From Ostreococcus lucimarinus (Eukaryota), in the NCBI GenBank assembly GCA_000092065.1, contig CP000600.1: a stretch of DNA of 64,000 bases. One strand, written 5' to 3'. Numbering within the stretch: the stretch's first letter is position 1; the number at the start of each line of letters is the position of its first letter. Below are positions 4,127 to 63,528 of this stretch, piece by piece. A program made the position numbers and the translations under genes. Below the pieces are notes generated by a model. The model was not told where the DNA came from, did no database searches, and saw only the letters and a list, made by a program, of their open reading frames with translations.

Positions 4127-4882
4127 ATGAGGCGCACCGCCGCGCGCGCGGCGCGCGCGTCTCGAAGCGCGCGCGAGTACCTGCCGAAGGCGTTTCCGTC
4201 GCTCGACGCCGACGACGTCGCGCGCGAGCTCTTCGACGACGCGCGCGCGGTGGCGACGTTCGGCGCGAGCGACGAGGCGACGGCGCGAAAACAGCTGGGA
4301 CACGCGTGCGCGCAGGCGATCGGAGGCGAAGCGCGCCGGTGCAGGCACGGATACAGTCGCGCGCTGCTGTACGCGCCGGCGTCGACGACGACGACGGACG
4401 CGAGGGCGGCGCTCAAGGCGGAGCACGCGCTGTCGAGACTGAGCTGTCCCGAACTCATCGAAGCCGTCGACGCGTGGGAGCGCGAGGGAGGGATACACGC
4501 CGTCGCGGCGGCGTGCGACGCGGACGAAAGTTTATTCCAAAGCCTGGAGCGGGCGCATCGAGACGCGCCGAGGGTGCGAAACTGGTTGGTGGGCGAGGAG
4601 ACGAGCGCGCGGGTGCGCGAAGGCGAGACGAAAACGGATTTCATCGTCAACAGAACGGGGTTAGTTGGGGTGAGTTTAGAGGCGCTGACGAGCCAGAAGA
4701 CGTGGAAGAAGGTGAAATGTCTTCACGCGCACATAGCGGACACTTTGGTGCGGGGGAGAGGGAAGAATGCGGTCGGCGCGTTTGCGCTCGACGTTCTTCG
4801 CACGAGAAGAGGCGTCGACGTCGACGGAACGCCCGAGTGCTGGCGCAGATGCGCGCCAGGGGTAGCGGAGAGTAGAAAGTAG
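4127..4882 (+). CDS. hypothetical protein (251 aa)
   Basis: This is the only in-frame ATG (4127) of the coding-looking C-terminal part of track ORF 3536..4882 (MRRTAARAARASRSAREYLPKAFPSLDADDV...). The upstream part of that ORF is antisense to the previous gene. No family recognised. Confidence 0.5.
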   Translation: MRRTAARAARASRSAREYLPKAFPSLDADDVARELFDDARAVATFGASDEATARKQLGHACAQAIGGEARRCRHGYSRALLYAPASTTTTDARAALKAEHALSRLSCPELIEAVDAWEREGGIHAVAAACDADESLFQSLERAHRDAPRVRNWLVGEETSARVREGETKTDFIVNRTGLVGVSLEALTSQKTWKKVKCLHAHIADTLVRGRGKNAVGAFALDVLRTRRGVDVDGTPECWRRCAPGVAESRK

Positions 4883-7864: not shown

Positions 7865-7962
7865 TCCCATATCTCTCCTTCAACCATCTCCCTACTTCCT
7901 AAACAATTCCTAAAAGTCCTTACCCTGACCTTTTCCAATCTGGCTGCGTCCTCATGCAACCG

Positions 7963-8112
7963 CTTCCTCTTCCTCTTCCTCTTCCTCTTCCTCTTCCTCT
8001 TCCTCTTCCTCTTCCTCTTCCTCTTCCTCTTCCTCTTCCTCTTCCTCTTCCTCTTCCTCTTCCTCTTCCTCTTCCTCTTCCTCTTCCTCTTCCTCTTCCT
8101 CTTCCTCTTCCT
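7963..8112. repeat. microsatellite (CTTCCT)25, pure pyrimidine on + strand
   Basis: 150 bp of perfect hexamer repeat, ending 4 bp from the transportin stop codon. The track ORFs translating it as LPLPLP / FLFLFL are artefacts. Confidence 0.97.
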
Positions 8113-8116
8113 CCAC

Positions 8117-10849
8117 TTAAACGCCGTACTGCTCAGCTAATTTTCTCATCACACCAGGTTCGAGATCCCGTACAACCATCGCCCACTGGTCGGTCCCAAC
8201 GTGATCCTTGAAGCCGCGCACAAGTTGACCCATGGTCGCGACGAGTTCATTGTTGCGGCACTGTCTCCACGACGCAACGGCCTCGACAAATGCGCTCAAA
8301 CCACTCGTCGCGCCCGACGGATTCATCTGAATCAACTTGCAAAGCCCCATGAAGCCGTGTTCTTTTTCAACGCCATCGCGAAGTCGTCTCAGAGCAGAGC
8401 ACCAAGACGTGATGAAATGCGCGAGACCACCTTGTAATTCTTCAGGACACGTCATCGAAAGTCGACCAAGACTTATGGCGGCATTTTCGCCAAGGGCTCT
8501 GTTCACCATTCGCATGTCGAGAATTTGAACCAAACATTGCGCCAGTGGCGCTACAAATGGACGCAATACGTCGCTTGACGTTCGAATGGCGATCTCGCCG
8601 GCGGCCCAGCTTGCGTTATTGCATACAGACATGTTCATGGATATGACCATCGCTGGCTGCAACTGCGCAACAATGAGCTCCATCAACTGTTGCAAAGACG
8701 GAGTCAAGTGCGCAGTACTCGAACGTGTGAGATCGCCCACGAGTGCGAATGCGCTACGTCTGACTCCTGGGGACTCATCCATGCACGAAGCGATGAGAAT
8801 ATCTCGAATAGGCGACTGCGCGACGAGCGGCTCGATGGCTTGTCCCATGCCTTCGCATAAACCAGAAAGCAAGTCCAAGGTACAAATGACGATGTCGATT
8901 GCGTACTCTTCGGCTGGCATCTCGCCGCGTTGCACTGCAGTGCGCTGCTGAAGCTGGTATGTCAAAGCGGAAATGCATTTTGCGAAAATCCCAGACGAGA
9001 ACTCGGCCGATGCCTGCCCGAGGCCGACGATTATCGCCGTGAGGCACTCGAGCAAATGATACAGCTCAGGGTCCACCTTGTTCGCATTCTCCCACTTTTG
9101 AAGCATTCCTGGTAAGATCGCACCGGCGTACCGCGCATCCTCAATCGACGGACCGATATTCTCCGCGAGCATGGTCAGTGCGTCGTACAAGTTGCGCATA
9201 TTCTTCCGCTGGTATGTAGCCAGCGCCTGGGTGAGCGTCTGCACGATAGTTTCGGTCCAAGGCGCCAGCGTGTCTTGACCTTCGGCGAGAAGGGTCGCGA
9301 TCGCGCCGCAAGCTGCGGCTTGAACGTGTTTGTTGTGATCCAAGCACCTCTTGCAAAGCGCTGTCGTCAGCGTGTTGAGCTGCTCCATACCTTGCTGCTG
9401 GGGCATCGCGTTTGGATCGTTCGACGGCCTCGCGCACTGCAACGTCCATCGAGAGAATCGACTGAGCGTCCAGCAAGTCGTTGAGCGCACCAACGGACGG
9501 GCGTCATCCAGCATCGGTAAGAGGAAATTGATTAGCATCGGGAGGTATTGCAGCAAGCCGCCTGAACAGCCCTCAGCGACGGCGCCAAGGGCCAAAATAG
9601 CGCTCTCACGGATCTCCCACCTCGACTCGCGTAGTCTCTGCTCGACGACGGGTAGCAGAAGAGGCAGAAGCTCGTCGCCAAAGACGTTCGACAGGATGTC
9701 CAAACCATTTGCAGAACTCTTTCGGAGGTTCCACACGAAGTCATCGCTGTCGTCTTGGCCGTCATCCTCTCCTTCTCCTTGTGAGCCTTTATCCTTGGTA
9801 TCACGAAACGTGGGTTTGATGTCTTGATCTCTGTCTTCCCTTCCCACGTTCACTTCGTCGTCCTCGGCCGAAATCACTTCCTCGTCGTCCTCCGTGTACG
9901 CCATGTTTGTCAACAACACTGGGATGAGTCTCGGCGTAAACTCGCGCAAAATTTGCACATAATCATCACCCAGTTCGGCCTCACAGAACGCTCCCCAGAA
10001 CTCGCACGACTCCATGGCGACGTCTTTATCCTCGTCGTCCTGCCTTTCGAGCATGTACACGATGATTTCCCGCAAATTCGGCGCCAACTTTTCTGGACAA
10101 ATGTGAATCAACATGACCAAGCCCGAGCACACCAGCCTTCGAACGTCGTTGTCCGGATCGTTCGCGAGCGAAAACAATCCTTGCAAGTAACTATCCAACA
10201 GCGCGTAGTGGTTTTCCGGCCAGCACGGCGCGATCATGTTCACCACGCCGACCGCTTGCTGGCGCACCTTGGCCGCCGGCGAGGAGAACAACGCGAACAG
10301 TCGCGGAATCACCATCCCCGCGGGCGAATCCGGCAACCCGGGCACTTTGACGTCCAATCTCCCGTTCACCTCCTCGCACGCCTTGTACAGCGCGCCCAGG
10401 GCACCGTCTCGAGAATTCTCGTCCCCCGCCTCGACCGCTCTCACGAGCGTCGGCCACAGGTCGCCCCAATTTTCAACCCCCCCGCACCGCACGATCACCG
10501 CCACGCACGTCCCGCACGTCCCCCTGATCAATCTCGACGGGTGTCCCAGCGCTCTCAGCAGCGTTTCTCGCACGTACGTCCTGTACTCTTCGCTCATCGT
10601 CGTCGTCCACGACGTCTTCAGATTATTCTTCAACAGCAGTCCCGCGCTCTGTCGCACGTCCTCCCTCCGTCCCGCGTCCTCGTCGCTCGTCAGCACGTGC
10701 GCGAGGTAGTTATTAAAGTCCGGAAACCCCGCGCATTGCTCCAGCCTGCCCAGCATCTCTCGCTGATTCGCGCGCGGGTCCAAGTATTCGGCGATCATCT
10801 GAATGATTCGCGCCGCCCCGTCCCCGTTCGGGGTCCACGCCGTCGCCAT
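8117..10849 (-). CDS. TNPO1: transportin-1 / importin beta-2 (910 aa)
   Basis: Collinear end to end with transportin-1. Matching blocks are FPDFNNYLAHVL, SAGLLLKNNL, an acidic loop followed by WNLRKSSANGLDILSNVFGDELLP, VRSTTCWTLSRF, NNASWAAGEIAI and the C-terminal ...LAEQYGV. Confidence 0.95.
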   Translation of the reverse strand: MATAWTPNGDGAARIIQMIAEYLDPRANQREMLGRLEQCAGFPDFNNYLAHVLTSDEDAGRREDVRQSAGLLLKNNLKTSWTTTMSEEYRTYVRETLLRALGHPSRLIRGTCGTCVAVIVRCGGVENWGDLWPTLVRAVEAGDENSRDGALGALYKACEEVNGRLDVKVPGLPDSPAGMVIPRLFALFSSPAAKVRQQAVGVVNMIAPCWPENHYALLDSYLQGLFSLANDPDNDVRRLVCSGLVMLIHICPEKLAPNLREIIVYMLERQDDEDKDVAMESCEFWGAFCEAELGDDYVQILREFTPRLIPVLLTNMAYTEDDEEVISAEDDEVNVGREDRDQDIKPTFRDTKDKGSQGEGEDDGQDDSDDFVWNLRKSSANGLDILSNVFGDELLPLLLPVVEQRLRESRWEIRESAILALGAVAEGCSGGLLQYLPMLINFLLPMLDDARPLVRSTTCWTLSRFSRWTLQCARPSNDPNAMPQQQGMEQLNTLTTALCKRCLDHNKHVQAAACGAIATLLAEGQDTLAPWTETIVQTLTQALATYQRKNMRNLYDALTMLAENIGPSIEDARYAGAILPGMLQKWENANKVDPELYHLLECLTAIIVGLGQASAEFSSGIFAKCISALTYQLQQRTAVQRGEMPAEEYAIDIVICTLDLLSGLCEGMGQAIEPLVAQSPIRDILIASCMDESPGVRRSAFALVGDLTRSSTAHLTPSLQQLMELIVAQLQPAMVISMNMSVCNNASWAAGEIAIRTSSDVLRPFVAPLAQCLVQILDMRMVNRALGENAAISLGRLSMTCPEELQGGLAHFITSWCSALRRLRDGVEKEHGFMGLCKLIQMNPSGATSGLSAFVEAVASWRQCRNNELVATMGQLVRGFKDHVGTDQWAMVVRDLEPGVMRKLAEQYGV

Positions 10850-12263: not shown

Positions 12264-13213
12264 TCACTTATCAAATAGTGATGGGCGAATCGCGCCGCCA
12301 AGATTCGACGGGAACAACTTCCTCACAAAGCAACCCACTTTCGAACGGTGCTTGTAAATTTTCGTCCGGATTCTGTTGAATGCCTCCGGTGAGCGGACAG
12401 AATCGAATGTTCCAGTGCGTAAGAACATTCCTTCTAGCGCGCGCGCGTACTTTTCTAGAGTGTCAAGATCTTCCAGCAAATCCGTCATAGCGTAATCCAT
12501 CCTGAGAAACGCCGAGCGCGCACGGTGCGAATAATAATTCACATCGCACATCTCCATATCATCGATGCTGTATTCAAACTGCGCCAACGTATGCTATCGT
12601 GTCACGCACGCATATTGTTACTTTAGTCAGTCATCAATCTCTCCGTGCGTCGTCGAAATCACGACTCGCGTGTAGTCGTATCGCTCGCATCGCTCGTCCC
12701 GTCGCACCTGCATGAGCTGCGCAATGTATTCGTGGCAACCCACCACCGCTTGCGCGTGACGATGCGGCCATCGCGTTACGCCCGCTTTTCTACACCTACA
12801 CTCACCGCGAACCAGACGCGCATCGTCAGTCACGCGGTCCGTGCGAGCGACAAAGACTCTCAAAAAAGTCAAAAAAAAATCGCGCGCTGGGCTCAAAAAC
12901 ACAATAAAGCGACGAAAGACACGTGCGCTTTGACGTACTGCAGCCTGAATGATCCAGAGGGCATCCCAAACGCCTTCGCGACTTTGTCCGCGGGCATCAT
13001 CAGGAACGCGTACAGCTCGTGCAAGTCGAACGGCTCGTCCAACTCCTCGTCGATCGCCAACGCCTCGCGTTCGGCAAACTGTTTCGCGACGAGCGCCGCT
13101 CGCCTCGCCCGTTGATCATCATCGATTATCCCCAATCGATGATCTAAGATCGCGCGCGCCGCGCGCGCCTCCGTCGCCGCGAGCGCGTCGCGTTCGTTCG
13201 CAATCGTTCTCAT
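12264..13213 (-). CDS. small RWP-RK domain transcription factor (230 aa; 3 exons: 13213..12939, 12795..12708, 12593..12264)
   Basis: Three separate track ORFs join in phase. Exon 1 ends ...LYAFLMMPADKVAKAFGMPSGSFRL(Q). Exon 2 is CRKAGVTRWPHRHAQAVVGCHEYIAQLMQ. Exon 3 is HTLAQFEYSIDD.... The spliced product restores the canonical L-x-x-F-x...LG...LK-x-CR..G..RWP-x-R motif. Donors are GTACGT and GTGCGA, and both introns carry ACTGAC. Confidence 0.7.
12594..12707 (-). other. spliceosomal intron 2 (114 nt) of RWP-RK gene
   Basis: On the minus strand: CAG|GTGCGA donor, atgACTGACtaa branch box about 29 nt upstream of the GATAG acceptor, phase 0. Confidence 0.6.
12796..12938 (-). other. spliceosomal intron 1 (143 nt) of RWP-RK gene
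   Basis: On the minus strand: CTGCA|GTACGT donor, gtgACTGACgat branch box about 30 nt upstream of the GTGTAG acceptor. The intron splits a Gln codon (ca|g) inside the RWP-RK motif. Confidence 0.7.
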
Positions 13214-13495
13214 CGCGCGTGCGCGCGCGTCGCAGCCACGCGCGCCGCGCCGGGCGAGCGCACCACGGCCTCGCGCCTCGGAATAAAAAAACCCTCCGGT
13301 GGCATCGCGCGCGCCTTCCCGCGTCGCGCGCTTTCACTCGGCACGTTCATCGCACCGTCGATACCCTTTCGATTCGCGCTTGTACGGCGTCTTCGCCGCG
13401 CGCGGTGGCGATAAACGTTCGTGCGCTTTTTCGCCACTTTTTCGGTCTTTTCGGTCTGTTCGACGGCGACCGGTCGACAGTCGGAGATTTAACTT

Positions 13496-13540
13496 GTCGT
13501 ATGCGTAAACAGTCAGAATAAGGACGTATGCGTAAACAGT
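13496..13540. repeat. two tandem copies (27-bp spacing) of intergenic motif CGTATGCGTAAACAGT
   Basis: Exact 16-mers at 13498..13513 and 13525..13540. The first is part of an 18-mer identical to 39377..39394. They lie in the divergent spacer between the RWP-RK gene and the 13632 gene. Confidence 0.9.
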
Positions 13541-13592
13541 TCGAGACCCGTGCGCGCGCGCGCCGGGCGCGCCGGCGTCCCGGACCGCACTC

Positions 13593-13626
<34 letters not shown>

Positions 13627-13631
13627 GCGCC

Positions 13632-14918
13632 ATGCGCCGCGCGCTGGACGACGACGATGATCTCGGAGGCGCGCGTCGACGACGCGACGGCGCGCGAGCG
13701 CGCGCGGGGGCGCGAACGAGCGCGGCGAAGGCGGATGGGGACGGTTGCGCCGCGCGCGGTGCGTCGGCGGCGGCGCGCGAGGAGAACGGCGGCGCGGCGG
13801 CGCCGGGCGAGGGCGAGGGCGCGGGAGGGGCGATGCGCGTCGCGCGCGAGTGGGTCGGGGGTGATGGCGCGAAGGCGCGCGCGAGGGGCGTGGGGAGCGG
13901 GGGCGCGGCGAGGCGGGCGGCGCGCGGGCTAAATATAGCGACGACGACCGCGGTCGGGATGTACGTGTATTGGATACTCATGGGGACGGTGGCTTGGATC
14001 TCGCACTTGGGCGAACGCGCGCCGTGGTTGAGGTTCGCGCTACCGGCGGAAGGATATCCGGGAAACGCGCCGTCGAGCGCGGGGGCGCTCGGATTCGTCG
14101 CGAGAAACGTGCCGCTGAGTCTCATCTTTGTCGTGCCGCATTCAGTGTTTTTGCCGAGTCGATTGCGGAAGATTTTCGGAAAACATGGGCGTTTGATGTA
14201 TAATTTCGTGTCTGCGGCGACGTTGCACTTCTTCTTGTTGAATTTTACGCCGTTGAAGACGCCGGTGGTGATGACGATTCCATTCAACACGAATTTTCAC
14301 AACGCGCTCTCGATTGGATGTCTCGCTTACGCGTCGTATGCGTTCCTCAGCTCACCCGCAACGTTAGGTTTATTAGGTGTGAGCTCGGCGCTCGAGCTTC
14401 GCGACAGTAAATACTCCAATCCAGCGGCTGGCATGGACGCCATCACGTGGATGGGCGTGACGACGTGGCGGCTCGGCGGCGCCTCCGCCTTTGTATTGTT
14501 CACCGGTCTATCCATCATCCCGCGCGAGCTCACGTTGGGTGACTGCATCACGAGATGTGTTGCTGCGGTGTATTTACGTCAGCGCTCGCGATCGTTCCGC
14601 GAGTGGGTGGAAAAGATCGAGGGCGTCCACCTCTTGACGTGGATTTTACGAGGCACGCTCTTGTCCTTCGCGTGTCACGGCGCCTTGCAAGGCGGTGGAA
14701 ACGTTCGCACAGTGGGATGGATTTTATTCGGCGCCGCGAGTTTAGCGGGAATTCTGCGTCTCGCCGAGTCAGAGAGTCCGAACGCTAAGAAGAAACCCAT
14801 TTCTCGCGCCGCGTCCTTTGACGTCGCCGAAGCCGCGCCCGCGGCGCTCGACGACGTCGCCCGAGTCAATCGCCCGGAGCGCTGGCACGCGTGGAACCCG
14901 CACGCTCGCATGACGTGA
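13632..14918 (+). CDS. multi-pass membrane protein (NnrU/ICMT-like topology), function unknown
   Basis: ATG ORF of 428 aa. A Gly/Ala/Arg-rich N-terminal region of about 100 aa is encoded partly by (CGG)n. At least 7 hydrophobic helices follow (MYVYWILMGTVAWISHL, VPLSLIFVVPHSVF, LMYNFVSAATLHFFLLNF ...). The family is a guess. Confidence 0.55.
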   Translation: MRRALDDDDDLGGARRRRDGARARAGARTSAAKADGDGCAARGASAAAREENGGAAAPGEGEGAGGAMRVAREWVGGDGAKARARGVGSGGAARRAARGLNIATTTAVGMYVYWILMGTVAWISHLGERAPWLRFALPAEGYPGNAPSSAGALGFVARNVPLSLIFVVPHSVFLPSRLRKIFGKHGRLMYNFVSAATLHFFLLNFTPLKTPVVMTIPFNTNFHNALSIGCLAYASYAFLSSPATLGLLGVSSALELRDSKYSNPAAGMDAITWMGVTTWRLGGASAFVLFTGLSIIPRELTLGDCITRCVAAVYLRQRSRSFREWVEKIEGVHLLTWILRGTLLSFACHGALQGGGNVRTVGWILFGAASLAGILRLAESESPNAKKKPISRAASFDVAEAAPAALDDVARVNRPERWHAWNPHARMT

Positions 14919-26407: not shown

Positions 26408-26800
26408 TCACCCCGAATCGGCGTCCGATGTCGACGAAAAGTTAGGACAAGCTAGAACGTGTAACTCTCGTGTCGTCACAAAAGTTTCGGCGACGTTCGC
26501 GCCGTCGAGCGGTGCGAAGTCGCGCCGAACCATCGCGAGCAAACCATCACACACCATCTCAAATGATGCAAAATCCATCATTCGGGCGCTTAAATCGCGT
26601 CCGAATTCGACGAAAAGTTGGGAAAAGCTGGAGAACGAAAAGTTCTCGCCGTCGGCGCGAAAAGCATAAAGAAACCAAGCGATACCGGGGGTTCCTGACG
26701 TCTTCCGACATCGGTACTTATCCGGCCCACGCGGTCTTAACTGAGAAGTTCCGATGGGTTTCTGTGATTTTCCGCGGGTGTGGTCGCTTGATGACACCAT
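26408..26800 (-). CDS. candidate small orphan protein (130 aa), low confidence
   Basis: This is the only protein-like ORF in an otherwise unassigned interval of about 1 kb (MVSSSDHTRGK...GIAWFLYAFRADGENFSFSSFSQLFVEFGRDLSARMMDFASFEMVCDGLLAMV...). Its position fits the local architecture: tail-to-tail with MAD2 and head-to-head with the Ldh_2 gene. It has low GC3 and no recognised family. Confidence 0.3.
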   Translation of the reverse strand: MVSSSDHTRGKSQKPIGTSQLRPRGPDKYRCRKTSGTPGIAWFLYAFRADGENFSFSSFSQLFVEFGRDLSARMMDFASFEMVCDGLLAMVRRDFAPLDGANVAETFVTTRELHVLACPNFSSTSDADSG

Positions 26801-27234
26801 GTGCCGCACGACCCTTTAGCCGCGCACCACGCGGGGTCACGGCGCGAACGTTACGGGTACTTTTGACGCCGTGTCGGTACTTTAAGAGTCGAAAACCTAT
26901 ACATTCACAAAATGCACCCCTCAATTATCGCGTCATCGCATCGCCGCTCGCGATTAGGCGCTTAAAAACCTCGATGTACGTGAATTCATCGCCCTTTTTT
27001 CGTTTCGTTCCCTGACTTTACCCTGTTTACCCCGTCTGACTGTTTACCCATAGATACCATAGAATTCAAGCGGTCGCAAACAACAACACGGATCCCCACC
27101 CCCCCTCGACACGCGCGCATGCCCCCCTGTGCCGCGGTCGTTGAGTGGATAATCGCGATCGGTCGACGATCGACGCCGCGCGACGCCGCACATTCGCGCG
27201 CCGAATCCACACCGCACACGCTCTCACGCACACG

Positions 27235-38288: not shown

Positions 38289-39344
38289 ATGGATCGACAC
38301 GCGTTCTTCGCCGCGCAGGCGTGGTTGACGGCGACGACGACGCGCGCGCGCGACGGCGCGCGTGCGAGCGACGACGGCGACGGCGACGACGGCGCGACGC
38401 GCGAGCGCGAGGAGATATACGCCGGGACGTGCTCGTTTTCGTGCGCGGACGAGGAGCAGTACGAGACGCGGGCGATCGCGACGATGGACGGCGACGACGC
38501 GGCGGACGACGGGGAGGACGACGCGGCGGACGACGGGGAGGAGGACGCGGCGGAGAATGGAAGAGGGCGACGGCGCGCGCGGCCGCGCGGCGCGCTGGCG
38601 AGAGATGCGCAGCACTTGACGTTCGGGACGACGGCGACGCTGCGCGACCCGGCGAGCGTTCGAGTGTCGTTCGCGGCGGTGAAAACGACGTTCGGAGCGA
38701 GCTCGGGAACGGGGTCGGGATCGACGAGCGTGGGGGATGCGACGACGGCGAACGCGCGCGCGCGAATTGAGCTCGAGTGTGAGCTCGACGGTCAGACGTA
38801 CAGGATGTCGACGCGAACGTGCCGCGCCGTCGTGAAATCGTTCAAGGAGACGGCGCGATCGGGGCACACCGAGGCTTTTCCGCGGTATTTGAGCGTCATT
38901 TTCCCTCACGTCACCATGAACGTATACTCTGCCGCGGAATCCGACGCTTCGTGGGACGGTTTGCGCGCGCTCGCGCGCGCTTTGACGGACCCCGCGCTCG
39001 CGACGACGAAGACGACGACGACGACGAGCGAAAACTACGACGACGGACACGACACCGACCCCGACGGAAACGATCCGAGTCCAGTGGGCGTGGGGAAGCC
39101 GAATCCTCTTCCACGTTCGATCGGGAACGAGATCGATCTCGAGACTGTCGCGCTCGCGGACGCCGACGCCTTTGCCGCGCAGCGTTTCGCCGCCGACGCT
39201 CTCTGCGACGCCGCTCGGCTCCTCGTCGCCGACGGCGATCCGTGGCGAACGCTTTCGCACGACTTGCTCGCTCACGGCGTGCGCGACGTTTTCGCGGACG
39301 ATCCATCCGCGTACGCCGGGCGCGCTTTTCCAGGCGACAAGTAA
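38289..39344 (+). CDS. hypothetical protein (351 aa)
   Basis: ATG ORF with non-repetitive, mixed amino-acid composition in its C-terminal two thirds (ELECELDGQTYRMSTRTCRAVVKSFKETARSGHTEAFPRYLSVIFPHVTMNVYSAAE...). The opposite-strand 629-aa ORF is Arg-rich and codon-aligned antisense. No family recognised. Confidence 0.5.
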   Translation: MDRHAFFAAQAWLTATTTRARDGARASDDGDGDDGATREREEIYAGTCSFSCADEEQYETRAIATMDGDDAADDGEDDAADDGEEDAAENGRGRRRARPRGALARDAQHLTFGTTATLRDPASVRVSFAAVKTTFGASSGTGSGSTSVGDATTANARARIELECELDGQTYRMSTRTCRAVVKSFKETARSGHTEAFPRYLSVIFPHVTMNVYSAAESDASWDGLRALARALTDPALATTKTTTTTSENYDDGHDTDPDGNDPSPVGVGKPNPLPRSIGNEIDLETVALADADAFAAQRFAADALCDAARLLVADGDPWRTLSHDLLAHGVRDVFADDPSAYAGRAFPGDK

Positions 39345-39376
39345 AAGCGTGGACATCCAACCGGGCGATGCGAATC

Positions 39377-39394
39377 GTCGTATGCGTAAACAGT
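39377..39394. repeat. third copy of intergenic motif GTCGTATGCGTAAACAGT
   Basis: Exact 18-mer match to 13496..13513, flanked by direct ATGCGAATCG repeats (39368..39377 and 39402..39411). It lies 33 bp after the stop of the 38289 gene and 310 bp upstream of the KH-protein ATG. Confidence 0.9.
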
Positions 39395-39703
39395 ATGCTC
39401 ATGCGAATCGACAGGGGAGGGCGCCAGCGTGGTTGTCGCGAGGCGCGCCCGCGCCCGTACACCGAGTCGTGCGCTTTCGTCCTGTCGGCGATCGCGCGCG
39501 CGCGGCGCCGAGCGCTCGATCGCGAACGTTCATCCGTAAACGTCTCGATCGCACGCGCGCGCGTCGCGGACGGACGCGTCGTCGCGCGAGCCAGGCGACG
39601 CGCAAAGATCGACGCTCACGCGTTTTCACCCTTCGCGCGTCGTTCACGCGTTTTCCGCGCTTGACGACGCCGCGCGCATCGCACGCGCGCGCATCGACGC
39701 GAA

Positions 39704-40801
39704 ATGAGCGGTGATGGTTTTTTTACGTTCACCGACGCCGATCCGAGCCAGTGGCTGCCCAAAGGGATCGTGGACGAGCGCGAGGAACACGATGCGGGGG
39801 CGTACGCGTCGTTCGCGCTCCCGCAAGGCTCGGCGAGCAGGAGCGCGAGCGACGACAATTCTAGAGGCTCGTTCGATTCGTTTGGGGTGAAATCAAAAGT
39901 GCTCGGGAGCGTGTTGTACGATGATGAAGGATTGATTCCGCTGGGGCTCGGTGGACACGCGTACGTGGACAAGTCGACGTCGCCGAAGAGCACGGCGTCG
40001 CCGACGGCGGCGTTCGTGGCGGATGCGGAGTTCGGCGCGGCGGCGGCGAGTGGATCGAGATTACGTGGGCCTTCTGGTCCTCGACGCGCTGGTCAAGGAG
40101 TCGAGGAAGAAGAACAGCAAGTGGCATCCATAGAGGTCATGGCGAACGGTGGTTTGCGACTGCGCGTGACGCTGCTCGCGGCGGGATTCGTCATCGGCGC
40201 CAGCGGAGCGTCGATTCGAGAAATTATGCGTCACACCGGTTCGACGATTCAGTCTTGGACGCAGCAACCCGAAATGGGGGTATATCATCGTCCATGCCGC
40301 GTTTTCTGCATCCAAGGCTTGCCCGAATCCGTCATGGCGGCCTCGAATATCATCCACGAAGCCGTCGAGCGATACAAGGAGTTGTGCGAAGGGAAGCGCC
40401 GCGGAGAGTTTGTGCAGCGATTGCAGTACATTCGCGGCGTTGAATTCTCGTACCAACCGCCTCCGAAAAATGCTGTACCAAATGCTGCCTCCGTGAATGG
40501 CGCCACTCGTCAAGGTACGAATCCACTCCTGATGCCGAGGCAACCGACGAATGCGGCGAATGAAACCATGCGCCTCCTCGCCGCCGCGCAGGCGCAGCGA
40601 GCCGCTATGCAACATTACCAAAACCTTGCGACACAATCCTACGCCGCGGGGTTAGCCGCCGGTGCTAAGATGGGTCATGTTCCGGCGATATCGGCGATGT
40701 CGGCGATGCCAGACTCTGAGAATCCTTTTGCCGCCGCTCAAATGCCGAACCCAAGTGATTTTTTCACCGCGTTCAGCGCGCAAACTCGCCCGAATGTTTG
40801 A
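39704..40801 (+). CDS. KH-domain RNA-binding protein
   Basis: ATG ORF of 365 aa with a type-I KH core: LRLRVTLLAAGFVIGASGASIREIMRHTGSTIQSW...CRVFCIQGLPESVMAASNIIHEAVERY. Confidence 0.7.
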   Translation: MSGDGFFTFTDADPSQWLPKGIVDEREEHDAGAYASFALPQGSASRSASDDNSRGSFDSFGVKSKVLGSVLYDDEGLIPLGLGGHAYVDKSTSPKSTASPTAAFVADAEFGAAAASGSRLRGPSGPRRAGQGVEEEEQQVASIEVMANGGLRLRVTLLAAGFVIGASGASIREIMRHTGSTIQSWTQQPEMGVYHRPCRVFCIQGLPESVMAASNIIHEAVERYKELCEGKRRGEFVQRLQYIRGVEFSYQPPPKNAVPNAASVNGATRQGTNPLLMPRQPTNAANETMRLLAAAQAQRAAMQHYQNLATQSYAAGLAAGAKMGHVPAISAMSAMPDSENPFAAAQMPNPSDFFTAFSAQTRPNV

Positions 40802-45223: not shown

Positions 45224-45375
45224 CGGAGCGCGCCTTGTAACGCGTACGAGCAAACAGTCAGCCCAACCCGATGTGAAGTTTTATGATTCACGAAAAAGTC
45301 GGACAAAAGATTCGTTCCCGCGCATTTTCGGAGCGCGCCTTGTAACGCGTACGAGCAAACAGTCAGCCCAACCCG
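45224..45375. repeat. tandem duplication: 47-bp unit CGGAGCGCGCCTTGTAACGCGTACGAGCAAACAGTCAGCCCAACCCG at 45224..45270 and 45329..45375 (105-bp period)
   Basis: Exact 47-bp direct repeat separated by an AT-richer 58-bp spacer. It lies in the spacer between the NDUFAF5-like stop and the bHLH start, and contains TGTAA, ACGCGT and a CAAACAGTCAG element. Confidence 0.95.
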
Positions 45376-45668: not shown

Positions 45669-46442
45669 ATGGACGGCGCGACGCCGACGGCGGATTGGTT
45701 GAGCGACTTTTTTGACTCCTTTGACGCGGATGACGTCGGGGCGTTCGACGGCGCGAACGCGTTCGCGGACGTGCCGACGGAGGTGATCGGGGGTGAGGGC
45801 CCTAGGGTTCGAGCGGCGGGGACGAAACGAAAGGCGACGGAGGAGGCTGACGGGAGTCAGGATGAACGCGTCGCGGTGACGGCGACCTCGGTGGCGGCGA
45901 CCTCGGTGGCGGCGACCACGGCGGCGGCGACCACGGCGACGGGACGCTCGAATGTGTTGAGCGAAGGGGCGAAGAAGACGAAGAGCACGCGGGAGAAGCG
46001 TCGACGCGACGTTTTGAACAGTCGCTTTGAGGAGCTCAGCGCGGTGCTCGAACCGGGTGAGTCGCAGGGTGAGTCGCAGTCGAAGGCGACGGTGGTGTTC
46101 GCGGCGACGGAGTTGATCAAGCGACTGCGTGTCGAACACGCGAGGTTAGCGAACATGATCATGCGATTCCAAGAGGATAACCTGCTAAAGACGGAGCTCA
46201 CCCAAAAGCTCGCTGCGGAACGCGATCAACTCATGCAAGAAAAGACGCATTTATTGCGAGAGAAGCTTCGCATCGAGGCACAGTTACAAGGTTTCTTGAC
46301 GAGCATGCCGTTTGCGTCTCCCGCGGATGGCATGGTGTCCACGAAATCGGCGAGCGGCGTCGCGGCGTGGACCGTGCCCATGCCCTTCATGCCGGCGAGC
46401 GAAGAAGGAGAAGACGTCACCTTGCGCGCCCCTGTGGCGTAA
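45669..46442 (+). CDS. bHLH-zipper transcription factor (257 aa)
   Basis: From the ATG at 45669 (MDGATPTADWLSDFF...). The basic-HLH region is KSTREKRRRDVLNSRFEELSAVL...ATVVFAATELIKRLRVEHARL, followed by a heptad Leu zipper (LLKTELTQKLAAERDQLMQEKTHLLREKLRIEAQL). Confidence 0.75.
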   Translation: MDGATPTADWLSDFFDSFDADDVGAFDGANAFADVPTEVIGGEGPRVRAAGTKRKATEEADGSQDERVAVTATSVAATSVAATTAAATTATGRSNVLSEGAKKTKSTREKRRRDVLNSRFEELSAVLEPGESQGESQSKATVVFAATELIKRLRVEHARLANMIMRFQEDNLLKTELTQKLAAERDQLMQEKTHLLREKLRIEAQLQGFLTSMPFASPADGMVSTKSASGVAAWTVPMPFMPASEEGEDVTLRAPVA

Positions 46443-60124: not shown

Positions 60125-61555
60125 ATGTCGTGCCAAGCGATGTTAAACACGCCCGCGCTCGCGCCGGCGGTGACATCCGTCGCCCACCGTCGCCCTAGCC
60201 GCCGAGGTGCTCGCGCGTTGACGCGCGCCAACGCCGGTGGTGCCATGGAGCAGCTCACGTTGAAGCCGATGAAGAAAATTGAAGGCACGGTTCGATTGCC
60301 GGGGTCTAAGTCGCTGTCAAACCGCATTCTGCTCCTCGCGGCGCTCGCAGAAGGAACGACCAAGGTGGAAAACTTGTTGGATAGCGACGACATTCGTTAC
60401 ATGGTTGACGCGCTTAAAGTTCTGGGGCTGTCCTTCACGGAAGACAGAGAGAACAACATTTTGGAAATCACCGGTTGTGGGGGTAAGCTCCCGGTCGAGG
60501 GCGCGGAGTTGTTCCTCGGTAACGCCGGGACGGCGATGCGACCGCTCACCGCCGCCGTGGCTGCGGCGGGTAAAGGCACGTTCATCCTCGATGGTGTCGA
60601 GCGTATGCGTGAAAGACCAATTCAAGATCTTGTTGATGGTTTGGTTCAGCTTGGTGTCAAGGCGGAGTGCACGATGGGTACGGGTTGCCCGCCGGTGAAG
60701 GTTGAGGCGAACGGCTTGCCTGGCGGTCGCGTCGAGCTCAGCGGTTCCGTGAGCTCGCAATACCTCACCGCGCTCCTCATGGCGGCCCCACTTTGCGAAG
60801 GGTCGATTGAAATCGTAATTGTCGATGAGCTCATCTCCAAACCGTACGTTGAGATGACTATCACACTCATGGAACGCTTCGGTGTCAAGGTAGAAAAGGC
60901 GGACGACCTCCAGAGCTTTAAGATTCAAGGCGGACAAAAGTACATCTCCCCGGGCAGTGCATTTGTTGAAGGCGATGCTTCGTCCGCTTCCTACTTCCTC
61001 GCCGGTGCCACCATCACCGGTGGTACCGTCACTGTCATCGGTTGCGGTTCGGAGAGCATCCAAGGCGACACAAACTTTGCGTACACGATGGAGCAAATGG
61101 GCGCGACGCTCGAGTGGGGTCCGAACTCGGTCACCTGCACCGGTCCCAAGGGCCCGCTCAAGGCGATTGATGTGAACATGAACGCCATGCCCGACGCTGC
61201 GATGACTCTTGCCGTCGCTGCACTCTTCGCTGACGGCATCACTACCATTCGTGATGTCGCGAGCTGGCGCGTGAAGGAAACCGAGCGCATGATTGCGATT
61301 TGCACCGAGCTGCGCAAGCTCGGTTGCGACGTCTTCGAAGGCGCGGATTACTGCGTCATCACCCCTCCTCACAAGCTCGACCCCCCGGCCAAGATGAAGG
61401 CCAACGTTGACATCGATACCTACGACGATCACCGCATGGCCATGGCTTTCGCCTTGGCCGCGTGCGGCGACGTCGACGTCGTCATCAACGACCCGAAGTG
61501 CACGAAGAAGACTTTCCCGACGTACTTTGACGTCCTCAAGTCCGTCGCCAAGTGA
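60125..61555 (+). CDS. aroA: 3-phosphoshikimate 1-carboxyvinyltransferase (EPSP synthase) with chloroplast transit peptide
   Basis: [72 protein letters not shown] and [12 protein letters not shown]. Confidence 0.95.
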
Positions 61556-61663
61556 GCGTCGCGCGCATCTTCGACGTATTAGCTATTATAGAATTGGTGC
61601 AAGCTATCGTATATGAATCATTGGATAAATTTGTCTACCGTCCCCTCTCGCGAGTCGCGAAAC

Positions 61664-61951
61664 CTACTGCGGCGGCCCGCCCATTTGTTGCATCGATTGC
61701 GCGTTTAATTCCGCGAACCGCACCGACGTTCGCGCCGAGTGCTTCAGGAACTTTTCGCAGCACTTCGACACGCATCGCTCTTCGTCCTTCTCCAGCGTTT
61801 TCCTCCGAAACGACTGCACGCACGTCGAGAAGCACCGCTCCACCAAGTTGTTATACATCTTCAGGCTGTCTCGCGTCTGCATCGCTTCGATCATGCCCAT
61901 CATCTTCGCCTTGTCTTCCTCCGGGAACCCATCGAGCATGGCTGGGTCCAT
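61664..61951 (-). CDS. TIM9: mitochondrial import inner membrane translocase subunit Tim9 (small Tim, twin CX3C)
   Basis: FPEEDKAKMMGMIEAMQTRDSLKMYNNLVERCFSTCVQSF...EERCVSKCCEKFLKHSARTSVRFAE. It is near-collinear with plant TIM9, and the twin Cys-x3-Cys motifs are present. Confidence 0.9.
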   Translation of the reverse strand: MDPAMLDGFPEEDKAKMMGMIEAMQTRDSLKMYNNLVERCFSTCVQSFRRKTLEKDEERCVSKCCEKFLKHSARTSVRFAELNAQSMQQMGGPPQ

Positions 61952-62412
61952 GGCGACCTCGGTTTCGCTCGAGTCCGTCGCCGCGTCGCTCGGCGGCGTC
62001 TGCGGTGCCGCCGTCGCGGGCCGCCTTTCGACCCCGACCTAGGGTTCGGGCGCGCCCTCGATCGCGCGCGAAATCCGAGGCGCGGGCGTCCGAATGTGCC
62101 GGGGCGGGCGGGGCGGGTGTCCGAATGTCCGAATTGCGCGCACGTCCGCACTGTTTGCGCACACGATACAGACGTCCGCGCGCGCGTGTGATCTTTCGCG
62201 CCGACGTCACGCGCGTCGAGAGGGCGCGCGCTCGGACGCGTCGCGCGCGAGCGGGGACGGGGCACAGCGCGACGCGACGGCGAGGAACGACGCGAAAGAT
62301 TGAGTCGCATCACCGCGCGCGCCGGGCGAGGACGACGCGCGCGAACGACGGCGAGAAGACGCGCGGAAGACGAGGGCGAAAGAGCGAGGGCGAAGGGCTC
62401 GGTGGGGGGAGT

Positions 62413-63528
62413 ATGAAGACGCGGGGACGGACGACGCGGGCGCGGTCGGAGGACGCGGGGGAAGAAAACGAGGGCGCGCGAGATGGAGACGCGGGGAAGG
62501 CGCCCGAGGGAGCGACGGAGGAAGCGGCGGTGCCGAATGATGATTTTCTGTGCCTGTTCGACGAGAGCGCGCGAGAAGAGCCGGCGACGCTGAACGGGGC
62601 GTGGGAGGACGTGTTCGCGCAGCATCATCACGCGAACGCACCGCAAGGCGGTGTGGAAGGAGGGTTTCATCAAGGCAGTGAAGACGCGGGTGAACACTTT
62701 CCACAATCTGGATACGTGGACACGGTGCAGTACAAGCTTCCGACGACGCGCCCAGGGGTGGCGTCGACGTCGAGAGGGCGCGTGACAAAATCGCGCAGCG
62801 GCACTAGAACGTCAGGTTCGAGGAAGCCAAAGCCGATATCTCAATCTTTACCACCACGCCCGCAAGCGATGATGGCTCCGCTACCTCAGCCGATGTCACC
62901 GATGATGTACCGTTCGCCGGGGGGCAAGCCGAGGTCTTCGAGGTACAACGGCGTGTGCCGCCACGCCAAGTCTGGGCGTTACGAGGCGCACGTCTGGTTG
63001 AGAGAGTCACGACGGCAAGTTTACCTAGGTGGACACCTGGAGGAAGAGTTTGCCGCCGAGGCTTTTGATATCATTGTGTTGAAGCTCGCACGCATCGGCG
63101 ATCGCTCTCGAACAGGAACGCGTCCGCTTAAAATGAACTTTCCCGAGTCTCGTTACGCAAACTTGATCGGTTTCATTGATTCTCTTACGCTCGATGAACT
63201 GATCATGGAGGTTCGCCGACATTCCGAAGGTTTTGCGAGGGGTAATTCGGGATACAGAGGGGTCACGCAACACTCGCCTAAGAAGTTTGAGGCGAGAGTC
63301 GGAGTGCCCCCGCAAAGCAAACACGTGTACTTGGGGCTCTACGATTCTGCCGAGAAAGCTGCGGTGGCGTACGACACCGCTCTCGTTCAAGCGAGGGGAC
63401 GGAGAGCTTCGACGAACTTTCCAATTTACAACTACGACGAGCACATTCGCCAATACGAAGAAGCAGTGGCGAGGAATCCGGCGCTCGAGCAACACGAGCA
63501 CGGGCAGTACGAAGATTTACAACGATGA
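62413..63528 (+). CDS. AP2-family transcription factor with two AP2/ERF domains (ANT/AP2-like)
   Basis: From the ATG at 62413. Domain 1 is SSRYNGVCRHAKSGRYEAHVW...QVYLGGHLEEEFAAEAFD...NFP. The linker is LTLDELIMEVRRHSEGFARGNS. Domain 2 is GYRGVTQHSPKKFEARVG...HVYLGLYDSAEKAAVAYDTALVQARGRRASTNF. Confidence 0.85.
   Translation: MKTRGRTTRARSEDAGEENEGARDGDAGKAPEGATEEAAVPNDDFLCLFDESAREEPATLNGAWEDVFAQHHHANAPQGGVEGGFHQGSEDAGEHFPQSGYVDTVQYKLPTTRPGVASTSRGRVTKSRSGTRTSGSRKPKPISQSLPPRPQAMMAPLPQPMSPMMYRSPGGKPRSSRYNGVCRHAKSGRYEAHVWLRESRRQVYLGGHLEEEFAAEAFDIIVLKLARIGDRSRTGTRPLKMNFPESRYANLIGFIDSLTLDELIMEVRRHSEGFARGNSGYRGVTQHSPKKFEARVGVPPQSKHVYLGLYDSAEKAAVAYDTALVQARGRRASTNFPIYNYDEHIRQYEEAVARNPALEQHEHGQYEDLQR

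Follow-up and report, generated by a model that had tools for sequence, protein, structure and literature searches.

In a window of 64,000 nucleotides of the Ostreococcus lucimarinus CCE9901 genome (contig CP000600.1 of assembly GCA_000092065.1; the window means this whole stretch, numbered from its first letter), the 16-mer CGTATGCGTAAACAGT occurs three times without mismatch, at 13498-13513, 13525-13540 and 39379-39394, in each case on the plus strand. Sequence comparison extended this repeat to a 17-bp word, W-CGTATGCGTAAACAGT (W being A or T), with the degenerate form YRTRTGNGYAAACAGT, and the word appears to be a discrete cis-regulatory word. Its occurrence is non-random, its boundaries are sharp, it is limited to non-coding spacers that hold promoters, it is found in different algal taxa, and it has been gained by insertion. 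On balance it is probably a promoter-proximal site of a sequence-specific DNA-binding protein that was kept in Ostreococcus and related prasinophytes; the binding of a protein, an effect on transcription and the identity of a factor are what we infer from the sequence comparisons described here.

The first-pass annotation, which was made from the letters of the window, had reported the three exact copies, an 18-mer shared by the first and the third, a 27-bp spacing of the first two and a few related elements, and all of these were found to be correct. The 18-mer GTCGTATGCGTAAACAGT is common to 13496-13513 (copy 1, where the exact 16-mer at 13498-13513 is followed by CAGA) and 39377-39394 (copy 3, with the exact 16-mer at 39379-39394), and the starts of copies 1 and 2 are 27 bp apart. 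The related elements are GTAAACAGTCAG at 27036-27047 on the minus strand and GCAAACAGTCAG at 45250 and 45355, to which one more at 62150 on the minus strand can be added. They belong to four degenerate copies of the YRTRTGNGYAAACAGT form: CGTACGAGCAAACAGT with three mismatches at 45243-45258(+), a second copy at 45348-45363(+), TCTATGGGTAAACAGT at 27039-27054(-), which is followed by two more GGTAAA boxes within 27016-27054, and CGTGTGCGCAAACAGT with two mismatches at 62150-62165(-). An extra site with at most three mismatches, 12004(-), falls within the argC coding sequence and is probably a chance match. The copies are not an artefact, because the same sequences are carried by at least 16 independent metagenome assemblies, and the loci are found again in many assemblies of marine origin.

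Chance sharing of such a long string had been considered unlikely, and the counts bear this out. Sites with three or fewer mismatches number eight in the window against 0.33 expected, none of 100 shuffles having as many as eight, and the core GYAAACAGT occurs seven times against 0.34 expected. In the 9.7 kb of non-coding DNA of the window there are seven sites with 0-3 mismatches, as compared to 0.08 expected, whereas the classes with four and five mismatches are at chance level; therefore the motif is either clearly present or absent. The statement that the copies lie outside coding sequence likewise held: all five loci in the window are non-coding, in DNA of which about 85% is open reading frame (ORF) (P ~8e-5). 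These loci occupy five of the eight longest spacers of the window, each at least 359 bp long and each with a gene start. Three of the spacers are divergent, two are tandem and none is convergent; the 14 convergent spacers of the window carry no copy of the word (0/14).

Alignment of 25 copies showed that, next to the 16-mer, only position -1 (A or T in 24/25) exceeds about 0.5 bit, together with a weak NAGA preference at positions +1 to +4. Since the flanks are unrelated but for the A or T at -1, the unit is a 17-mer with sharp ends that does not belong to any longer repeat. In the window too, where the spacers had been called unrelated, the flanks are without likeness beyond the word. An exception is found in a GC-rich taxon, in which three unrelated loci have a common 52-bp module, ATTACGCAT-TTA-[word]-TAGAYGGTGCYAATCACC. 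The three loci (L149; L067/L139/L052/L053; L050/L075, where L numbers designate contigs) have a GC content of 0.61-0.67 and are from a flagellate alga; the module also holds an 8-bp inverted repeat (TTACGCAT / ATGCGTAA) and a GGTGCCAATCACC box with CCAAT. The intergenic variants of the word (CGTACGAGCAAACAGT, CGTGTGCGCAAACAGT, TCTATGGGTAAACAGT, TATATGTGTAAACAGT, CATATGTGTAAACAGT, TGTCTGTGTAAACAGT and the allelic CGTATGCGCAAACAGT) depart from the consensus at positions 1, 2, 4, 5, 7 and 9 and never at positions 10-16 (AAACAGT), a pattern which, judged from the sequences, looks like a binding-site profile rather than uniform decay. Enrichment analysis of k-mers within ±150 bp of 26 sites revealed no second motif that survives multiple testing, and GACCGAC and GTCCGAAT emerged from it as leads only. 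Repeats of GTCCGAAT / ATTCGGAC stand beside the word in three independent loci (62170-62230 in the window, L106 and L092), an association without statistical support; they may be a partner motif.

The word is not confined to O. lucimarinus. One scan of Joint Genome Institute (JGI) metagenome contigs for the exact 16-mer gave at least 120 matching stretches, and among the matches listed there are, according to clustering by blastn, at least about 22 further distinct green-algal loci with a GC content of 0.55-0.68. The genes at these listed loci encode an ELIP-like chlorophyll-binding protein, MinE, RACK1 (beside zuotin), NOL10, a DEAD/GUCT helicase and a second DEAD helicase, as well as alpha-amylase, PurF, a cyclin, SRP14, an NTF2-RRM protein and Vps54, and further a LysM protein, an HSA/Myb chromatin protein and RIB43A. 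By protein clusters at 90% identity, the ELIP locus is tied to O. lucimarinus, the amylase locus to O. mediterraneus and the PurF locus to Ostreococcus spp., and the contigs of 0.62-0.68 GC, one of which carries the flagellar gene RIB43A, most likely represent another genus. For this RIB43A, no named relative exceeds 50% identity. On the assumption that distinct genome sequence from algae of this class amounts to no more than about 0.4 Gb, about 0.2 chance matches would be expected.

Matches in other organisms were set aside. The bacterial ones, which comprise a human-gut repeat and ORF-internal occurrences in RHS, enolase-like and trypsin-like genes, are unrelated or due to chance. In the human-gut contigs (L042-L044, L057, L058, L070-L072 and others) the 16-mer is part of a bacterial repeat, gttactgggcaCGTATGCGTAAACAGTaac, for which three or more different flanks were seen, and its likeness to the algal word is apparently a coincidence. 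A link to viruses was also considered; the 10 exact matches in IMG/VR all have unrelated flanks and GC content and are attributed to chance.

Certain distances between the word and gene starts recur. Neighbouring genes were called by ORF and Pfam analysis, so that gene starts are ORF-based and not transcript-based. Most of the metagenome loci among the matches listed are between divergent genes, and the distance from the word to the ATG of the gene in the same orientation is often 80-140 nt. Values of 91 and 118 nt were found for the gene starting at 13632, 80 nt for ELIP, 93 nt for L089 and 110 nt for MinE, with approximate or longer distances for NOL10 (~115 nt), a DEAD helicase (~120 nt) and RACK1 (136 nt). 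Outside this cluster are the Tim-like gene (~180 nt), L067 (202 nt) and the bHLH and KH genes of the window (306-310 nt). The word occurs in same-strand pairs at three window loci and in L089. An orientation bias is present and mild, with six loci that have only a same-orientation start nearby versus two or three that have only a divergent one.

Within the window, copies 1 and 2 are located in a 418-bp divergent spacer that separates the gene at 13632-14918 (XP_001422555) from an intron-containing minus-strand gene of the RWP-RK type, with the end of copy 2 (13525-13540) 91 nt upstream of the ATG at 13632. The RWP-RK assignment of the earlier annotation is corroborated by the RWPHR string in the translation and by a Pfam RWP-RK match on the neighbour of the orthologue. 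Copy 3 starts 35 nt past the stop codon of a hypothetical gene (38289-39344, XP_001422563) and ends 310 nt before the ATG of a KH-domain gene (39704-40801, XP_001422564). The degenerate copy at 45243 begins 47 nt past the stop codon of a UbiE-type methyltransferase gene, and the one at 45348 ends ~306 nt upstream of the first ATG of a bHLH gene (45669). The site at 27039(-) is in the divergent spacer between a 5S ribosomal RNA (rRNA) gene, 26674-26791(-), and an Ldh_2 gene (27145/27235, +), and that at 62150(-) is likewise in a divergent spacer, which has a small minus-strand Tim9/10-like gene on one side and an AP2 gene on the other; from this site to the Tim-like ATG, which is downstream of it, the distance is ~180 nt.

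Some observations on these neighbours can be added. The complete 5S rRNA gene (Rfam, 71 bits) stands alone in its 1-kb divergent spacer beside Ldh_2, and the degenerate word with its two GGTAAA boxes lies ~225-265 bp upstream of it. The long plus-strand ORF at 61552-63528 is not one gene: a Tim9/10-like protein with CX3C motifs is encoded on the minus strand at ~61664-61975, and the GC pattern by codon position suggests that the AP2 gene starts at ~62413 or later. All three recognised transcription-factor genes of the window, RWP-RK (12264-13213(-)), bHLH (45669-46442(+)) and AP2 (62413-63528(+)), have the word upstream; this association (post-hoc hypergeometric P ~0.003) is confounded with spacer length and is not treated as established.

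Three options had been put forward in the first-pass annotation, namely that the word is a site for a transcription factor, that it is a terminator or insulator, or that it is what a very small mobile or repeat element left behind. The first of these is the best supported, with the binding itself predicted from the following features. A putative binding site is favoured because the word has sharp edges, lies in promoter spacers, occurs in pairs, degenerates in a position-specific manner and persists in identical form in different species and genera while its instances turn over; the preferred distance to the ATG and the strand-independent reappearance of the word in an orthologous spacer also favour a putative protein that acts at promoters. 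Such a protein would dock on the word in the longer, promoter-holding spacers, either singly or on same-strand pairs. In these compact genomes the word would be promoter-proximal and possibly near the start of transcription, and it may serve as an upstream activating element or as a promoter-organising element of the general-regulatory-factor type; an insulator or boundary role for the putative bound protein is possible as well. Gain and loss of sites are rapid, and at least some of the new ones come from small copy-and-insert events and not from point mutation, as is seen in an insert of 23 nt that is accompanied by a 10-bp duplication, in a local duplication of 47 bp and in the transfer of a 118-bp module to another locus.

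Several observations weigh against this reading. Conservation in the orthologous spacers of sister species, which had been named as a check, gave a mixed outcome. For the 13632 spacer, L018 (96% amino-acid identity) has kept both copies with altered spacing, copy 1 being short of one A and copy 2 exact, and L020 (66% amino-acid identity) has TATATGTGTAAACAGT, a 13/16 match on the opposite strand (chance ~0.003 for three or fewer mismatches). The word is absent from this spacer in L019 and L021, two of the three distant species. It is also absent from the KH spacer of three sister species, here called X (L012, L013, L016, L017), Y (L014) and Z (L158, L159), and from the bHLH spacer of X and Z. 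Furthermore, 16 invariant bases are long for a transcription-factor site, and the functions of neighbouring genes are mixed, with no clear common theme; a weak enrichment of ribosome-biogenesis and translation genes (NOL10, two DEAD helicases, RACK1 with zuotin, 5S rRNA) is not treated as established. The window was chosen because the motif is present, which biases the local density upward, and ~60 kb from sister species, taken without regard to the motif, gave only one intergenic core match. The limitation to long spacers could also mark the places where insertions are tolerated. Finally, the mismatch spectrum in the window is bimodal: three copies are exact, single-mismatch copies are absent and those with four or five mismatches are not in excess, a pattern that would suit copying by descent as well as a very high specificity of binding. 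Differences in the spacer 13214-13631 are few, too few for a comparison of polymorphism inside and outside the word.

Several of these points are shared by the strongest of the alternatives, in which the word is a selfish or neutral micro-repeat, that is, the end, subterminal site, footprint or truncation of a DNA transposon or retroelement without host function. Such a repeat would spread by transposition and last only in long spacers, where insertions are tolerated. We consider this explanation unlikely, and it draws on the events of gain and copying that were found. Copy 3 is part of a 23-nt insert, TCGTATGCGTAAACAGTATGCTC (39378-39400), which is missing from the orthologous spacers of the three sister species. 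The direct repeats around this copy, reported earlier, are confirmed as a 10-bp duplication of ATGCGAATCG, resembling a target-site duplication, at 39368-39377 and 39401-39410, the right copy running into an ancestral CGAATCGAC box at 39404-39412. The KH spacers of X, Y and Z have a single CGAATCGAC box at the place of ATGCGAATCG-TCGTATGCGTAAACAGTATGCTC-ATGCGAATCG-AC in O. lucimarinus, and the flanks align on both sides. Because the three species share the empty state, a single gain of 33 bp (the 23-nt insert plus the 10-bp duplication) in the lucimarinus lineage is the parsimonious explanation. A duplication of 10 bp is compatible with Mutator-like elements or with reverse transcription of the target-primed type. 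The KH and bHLH copies, both lineage-specific gains, lie within a 6-kb stretch, and each of the two copies at 45243 and 45348 is within one copy of a local 47-bp duplication (45224-45270 and 45329-45375).

Copying to another locus was observed as well. The 118-bp module at 13441-13558, which comprises both exact copies 1 and 2, is according to blastn 99.2% identical to a segment in L073 (2503-2620) and L080 (~4567-4684), with an allelic GCAAACAGT variant of copy 1 in both. The remainder of these contigs is unrelated to the window and low in GC (0.44-0.46); their ORFs give weak glycosyltransferase-like and methyltransferase-like matches, and the module is located 147 bp upstream of another ORF. 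Their composition appears to resemble that of the hypervariable small outlier chromosome of Ostreococcus, and from its sequence context the transferred module looks like a promoter captured into a hypervariable region. A search of IMG/VR gave no relative of the low-GC contig with the copied module. The 52-bp module common to three unrelated GC-rich loci, described above, and the bimodal mismatch spectrum would also be explained by a micro-repeat.

The earlier proposal of a mobile or repeat element thus stands as far as the 33-bp lineage-specific gain and the copied 118-bp module are concerned, and other findings oppose it. Terminal inverted repeats were not found: the ends of the insert, TCGTATGC and GTATGCTC, are not inverted repeats, and all paired copies are direct. 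A transposon bounded by inverted copies was rejected, as the sole pair of inverted copies, spaced 1.2 kb apart in L090, encloses an ordinary gene plus a second divergent promoter. A target-site-like duplication with empty sites in three species is seen for copy 3, with none evident at other copies, and scanning of ~40 neighbouring ORFs revealed no transposase, integrase or reverse-transcriptase domains. The known non-autonomous elements are all far larger than an insert of 23 nt, and with flanks of the 25 copies that are alike in one base only, no longer element is visible. The identity of the word over 16/16 positions across species and genera, together with its position-specific degeneracy, points to constraint on the word itself; the ends of transposons are not usually so uniform between genera. 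Moreover, the copies are fixed, each being carried by every population contig that spans it: copy 1 is present in six such contigs, and of 11 lucimarinus-type contigs 10 have the insertion with an identical copy 3, the other one (L011) ending short of the site.

Binding and mobility might also be combined. In a self-propagating regulatory cassette, the word would be recognised by a conserved DNA-binding protein, which may derive from a transposase, or by the origin-recognition machinery, and it would be copied into further spacers as pieces of 23-118 bp with target-site duplications. This combination is quite unlikely; if true, it would mean that promoters, boundaries or origins are seeded by insertion rather than by point mutation in very small eukaryotic genomes.

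Only slightly less credence is given to a chromatin- or replication-organising site, which would be recognised by a boundary or nucleosome-excluding factor or would constitute a sequence-defined replication origin; we regard this as rather improbable. Long specific words of this type are the sites of yeast Reb1, Abf1 and Rap1 and the consensus of the budding-yeast autonomously replicating sequence (ARS), and, as is the case for yeast origins, single copies of the algal word are gained and lost among species while the word itself persists. The placement in long spacers, often between divergent genes, the lack of a functional theme among the neighbours and the distance of ~6-17 kb between sites in the window are consistent with such a role. 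However, with about one site or less per 50 kb in unselected sequence, a density much below that of the window, the word is too rare to serve all promoter pairs as a general boundary element, and the orientation of the word and its distance of 80-140 nt to the ATG fit a promoter element better than an origin.

The same proximity to the ATG and the preference for one orientation are what would be expected of a word at the RNA level, located in the 5' leader of a messenger RNA or in a short unannotated non-coding RNA and read by an RNA-binding protein. This is very unlikely, since the site in the orthologous spacer of L020 is on the opposite strand and many sites are in divergent spacers, which argues for strand-independent recognition of DNA, and no Rfam family, no stable or unusual fold and no flank conservation marks a transcript. 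At the gathering threshold, the only Rfam match in the window is the 5S rRNA gene, 248 bp from one site; at E <= 10 only noise was found around 13498, and 150 kb of 19 other motif loci gave nothing. No transfer RNA genes were found, and folding of the 118-nt and 61-nt regions on either strand was no better than that of shuffled sequences (z-scores +0.1 to +0.9). By the same results an RNA gene or a promoter of the small nuclear RNA type was rejected. A terminator or poly(A)-related signal of the upstream gene, also proposed earlier, agrees with the two tandem spacers in which the word lies 35 nt (39379) and 47 nt (45243) past a same-strand stop codon, and is highly improbable given that three of the five window loci and most listed metagenome loci are between divergent genes, where there is no upstream 3' end, that convergent spacers of the window are without the word, and that the KH-spacer copy is missing in three sister species with the same gene order.

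Other features of the window were noted in passing. Comparison of the orthologous KH spacers (L012, L014, L016 and L158) for footprints showed conservation in four species of the CGAATCGAC box that precedes the KH gene; this box includes GATTCG and is similar to sites of the LUX/MYB type. Upstream of the same gene, CACGCGTTTTC, which contains ACGCGT, occurs twice (39617-39627 and 39645-39655) and is seen in the window and in species X and Y. These two elements are more classical phylogenetic footprints than the 16-mer. At 7924-8155, a CTTCCT-type microsatellite with a 12-bp register and a length of ~200 bp fills the convergent spacer at the 3' end of an importin-like gene.

Ostreococcus and related algae, which are ecologically dominant members of the picophytoplankton, count among the smallest free-living eukaryotes. 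Promoters in these algae comprise only ~100-400 bp, and almost no cis-elements have been defined in them beyond a few plant-type motifs of 6-8 nt. A 17-bp word that is shared across genera offers a handle for finding a lineage-specific regulator or chromatin organiser, and a building block for synthetic promoters in the transformable O. tauri. The 33-bp gain, with empty sites in three sister species, is a clean case of a binding-site-like word that arrived by insertion, and it bears on the turnover of regulatory DNA in extremely compact genomes. Even as a neutral micro-repeat and nothing more, the word would be the trace of an insertion process hitherto unrecognised in genomes that are regarded as nearly free of transposons outside the outlier chromosomes.

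Among known systems, the closest parallels to the putative promoter-proximal binding site are the sites of the yeast general regulatory factors Reb1, Abf1, Rap1 and Tbf1 and of vertebrate ZNF143/Staf. Like the algal word, these are long and highly specific, are located 100-300 bp upstream of the starts of genes of mixed function, often between divergent genes, and are conserved across genera while individual sites turn over. The algal word is unrelated to them in sequence, apart from a loose GGGTAA likeness to the Reb1 core in the 27039 variant; its density appears lower. A second parallel is provided by binding sites that were spread by transposable elements, for example E2F sites on miniature inverted-repeat transposable elements (MITEs) of Brassica and STAT1 sites on primate MER41. 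Insertion with a target-site-like duplication, lineage-specific gains and the copying of modules upstream of other genes are common to these and to the algal word. Unlike in those cases, the algal insert is only 23 nt long (33 with the duplication) and has no terminal repeats and no recognisable parent element, and, in contrast to typical young transposon families, the word is common to distant genera.

The first-pass annotation had also remarked on a likeness to forkhead (FOX) sites, rightly making no claim for such factors. The string GTAAACA, which matches the site RYAAAYA / GTAAACA, is indeed within the exact algal copies. However, the constrained algal word of 16-17 bp is far longer than the forkhead core, and the copies at 45250, 45355 and 62150 have GCAAACA, which is outside RYAAAYA. 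To our knowledge, forkhead-domain proteins are not known from green plants and algae. The resemblance is probably superficial, a substring match only.

Searches of a paper library by string and by topic found the word in no algal paper there, the strings matching primers only, and the footprinting study of Piganeau et al. 2009 (J Mol Evol) could hold a prior description. The Micromonas genome paper describes introner elements and not this word (PMC4815162). The motifs listed in papers on promoters of Ostreococcus and Micromonas are all different from the word and shorter. The promoter motifs reported for Ostreococcus are plant-type motifs of 6-8 nt, namely the evening element AAATATCT, the E2F site GTTCCCC, the MYB sites CGATTC and GGATAG and the bHLH site CCACGTGG (PMC10662239, PMC12216367). 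Unlike the word, these motifs are short and match known plant factor families, and none of them overlaps it; like the word, they are found in promoters, no farther than ~250-500 bp from the ATG, and are frequently gained and lost between ecotypes (PMC10662239, PMC12216367). Beside these systems, we classify the word as a promoter cis-element with an unusually long invariant core, for which an insertional origin is documented for at least one copy.

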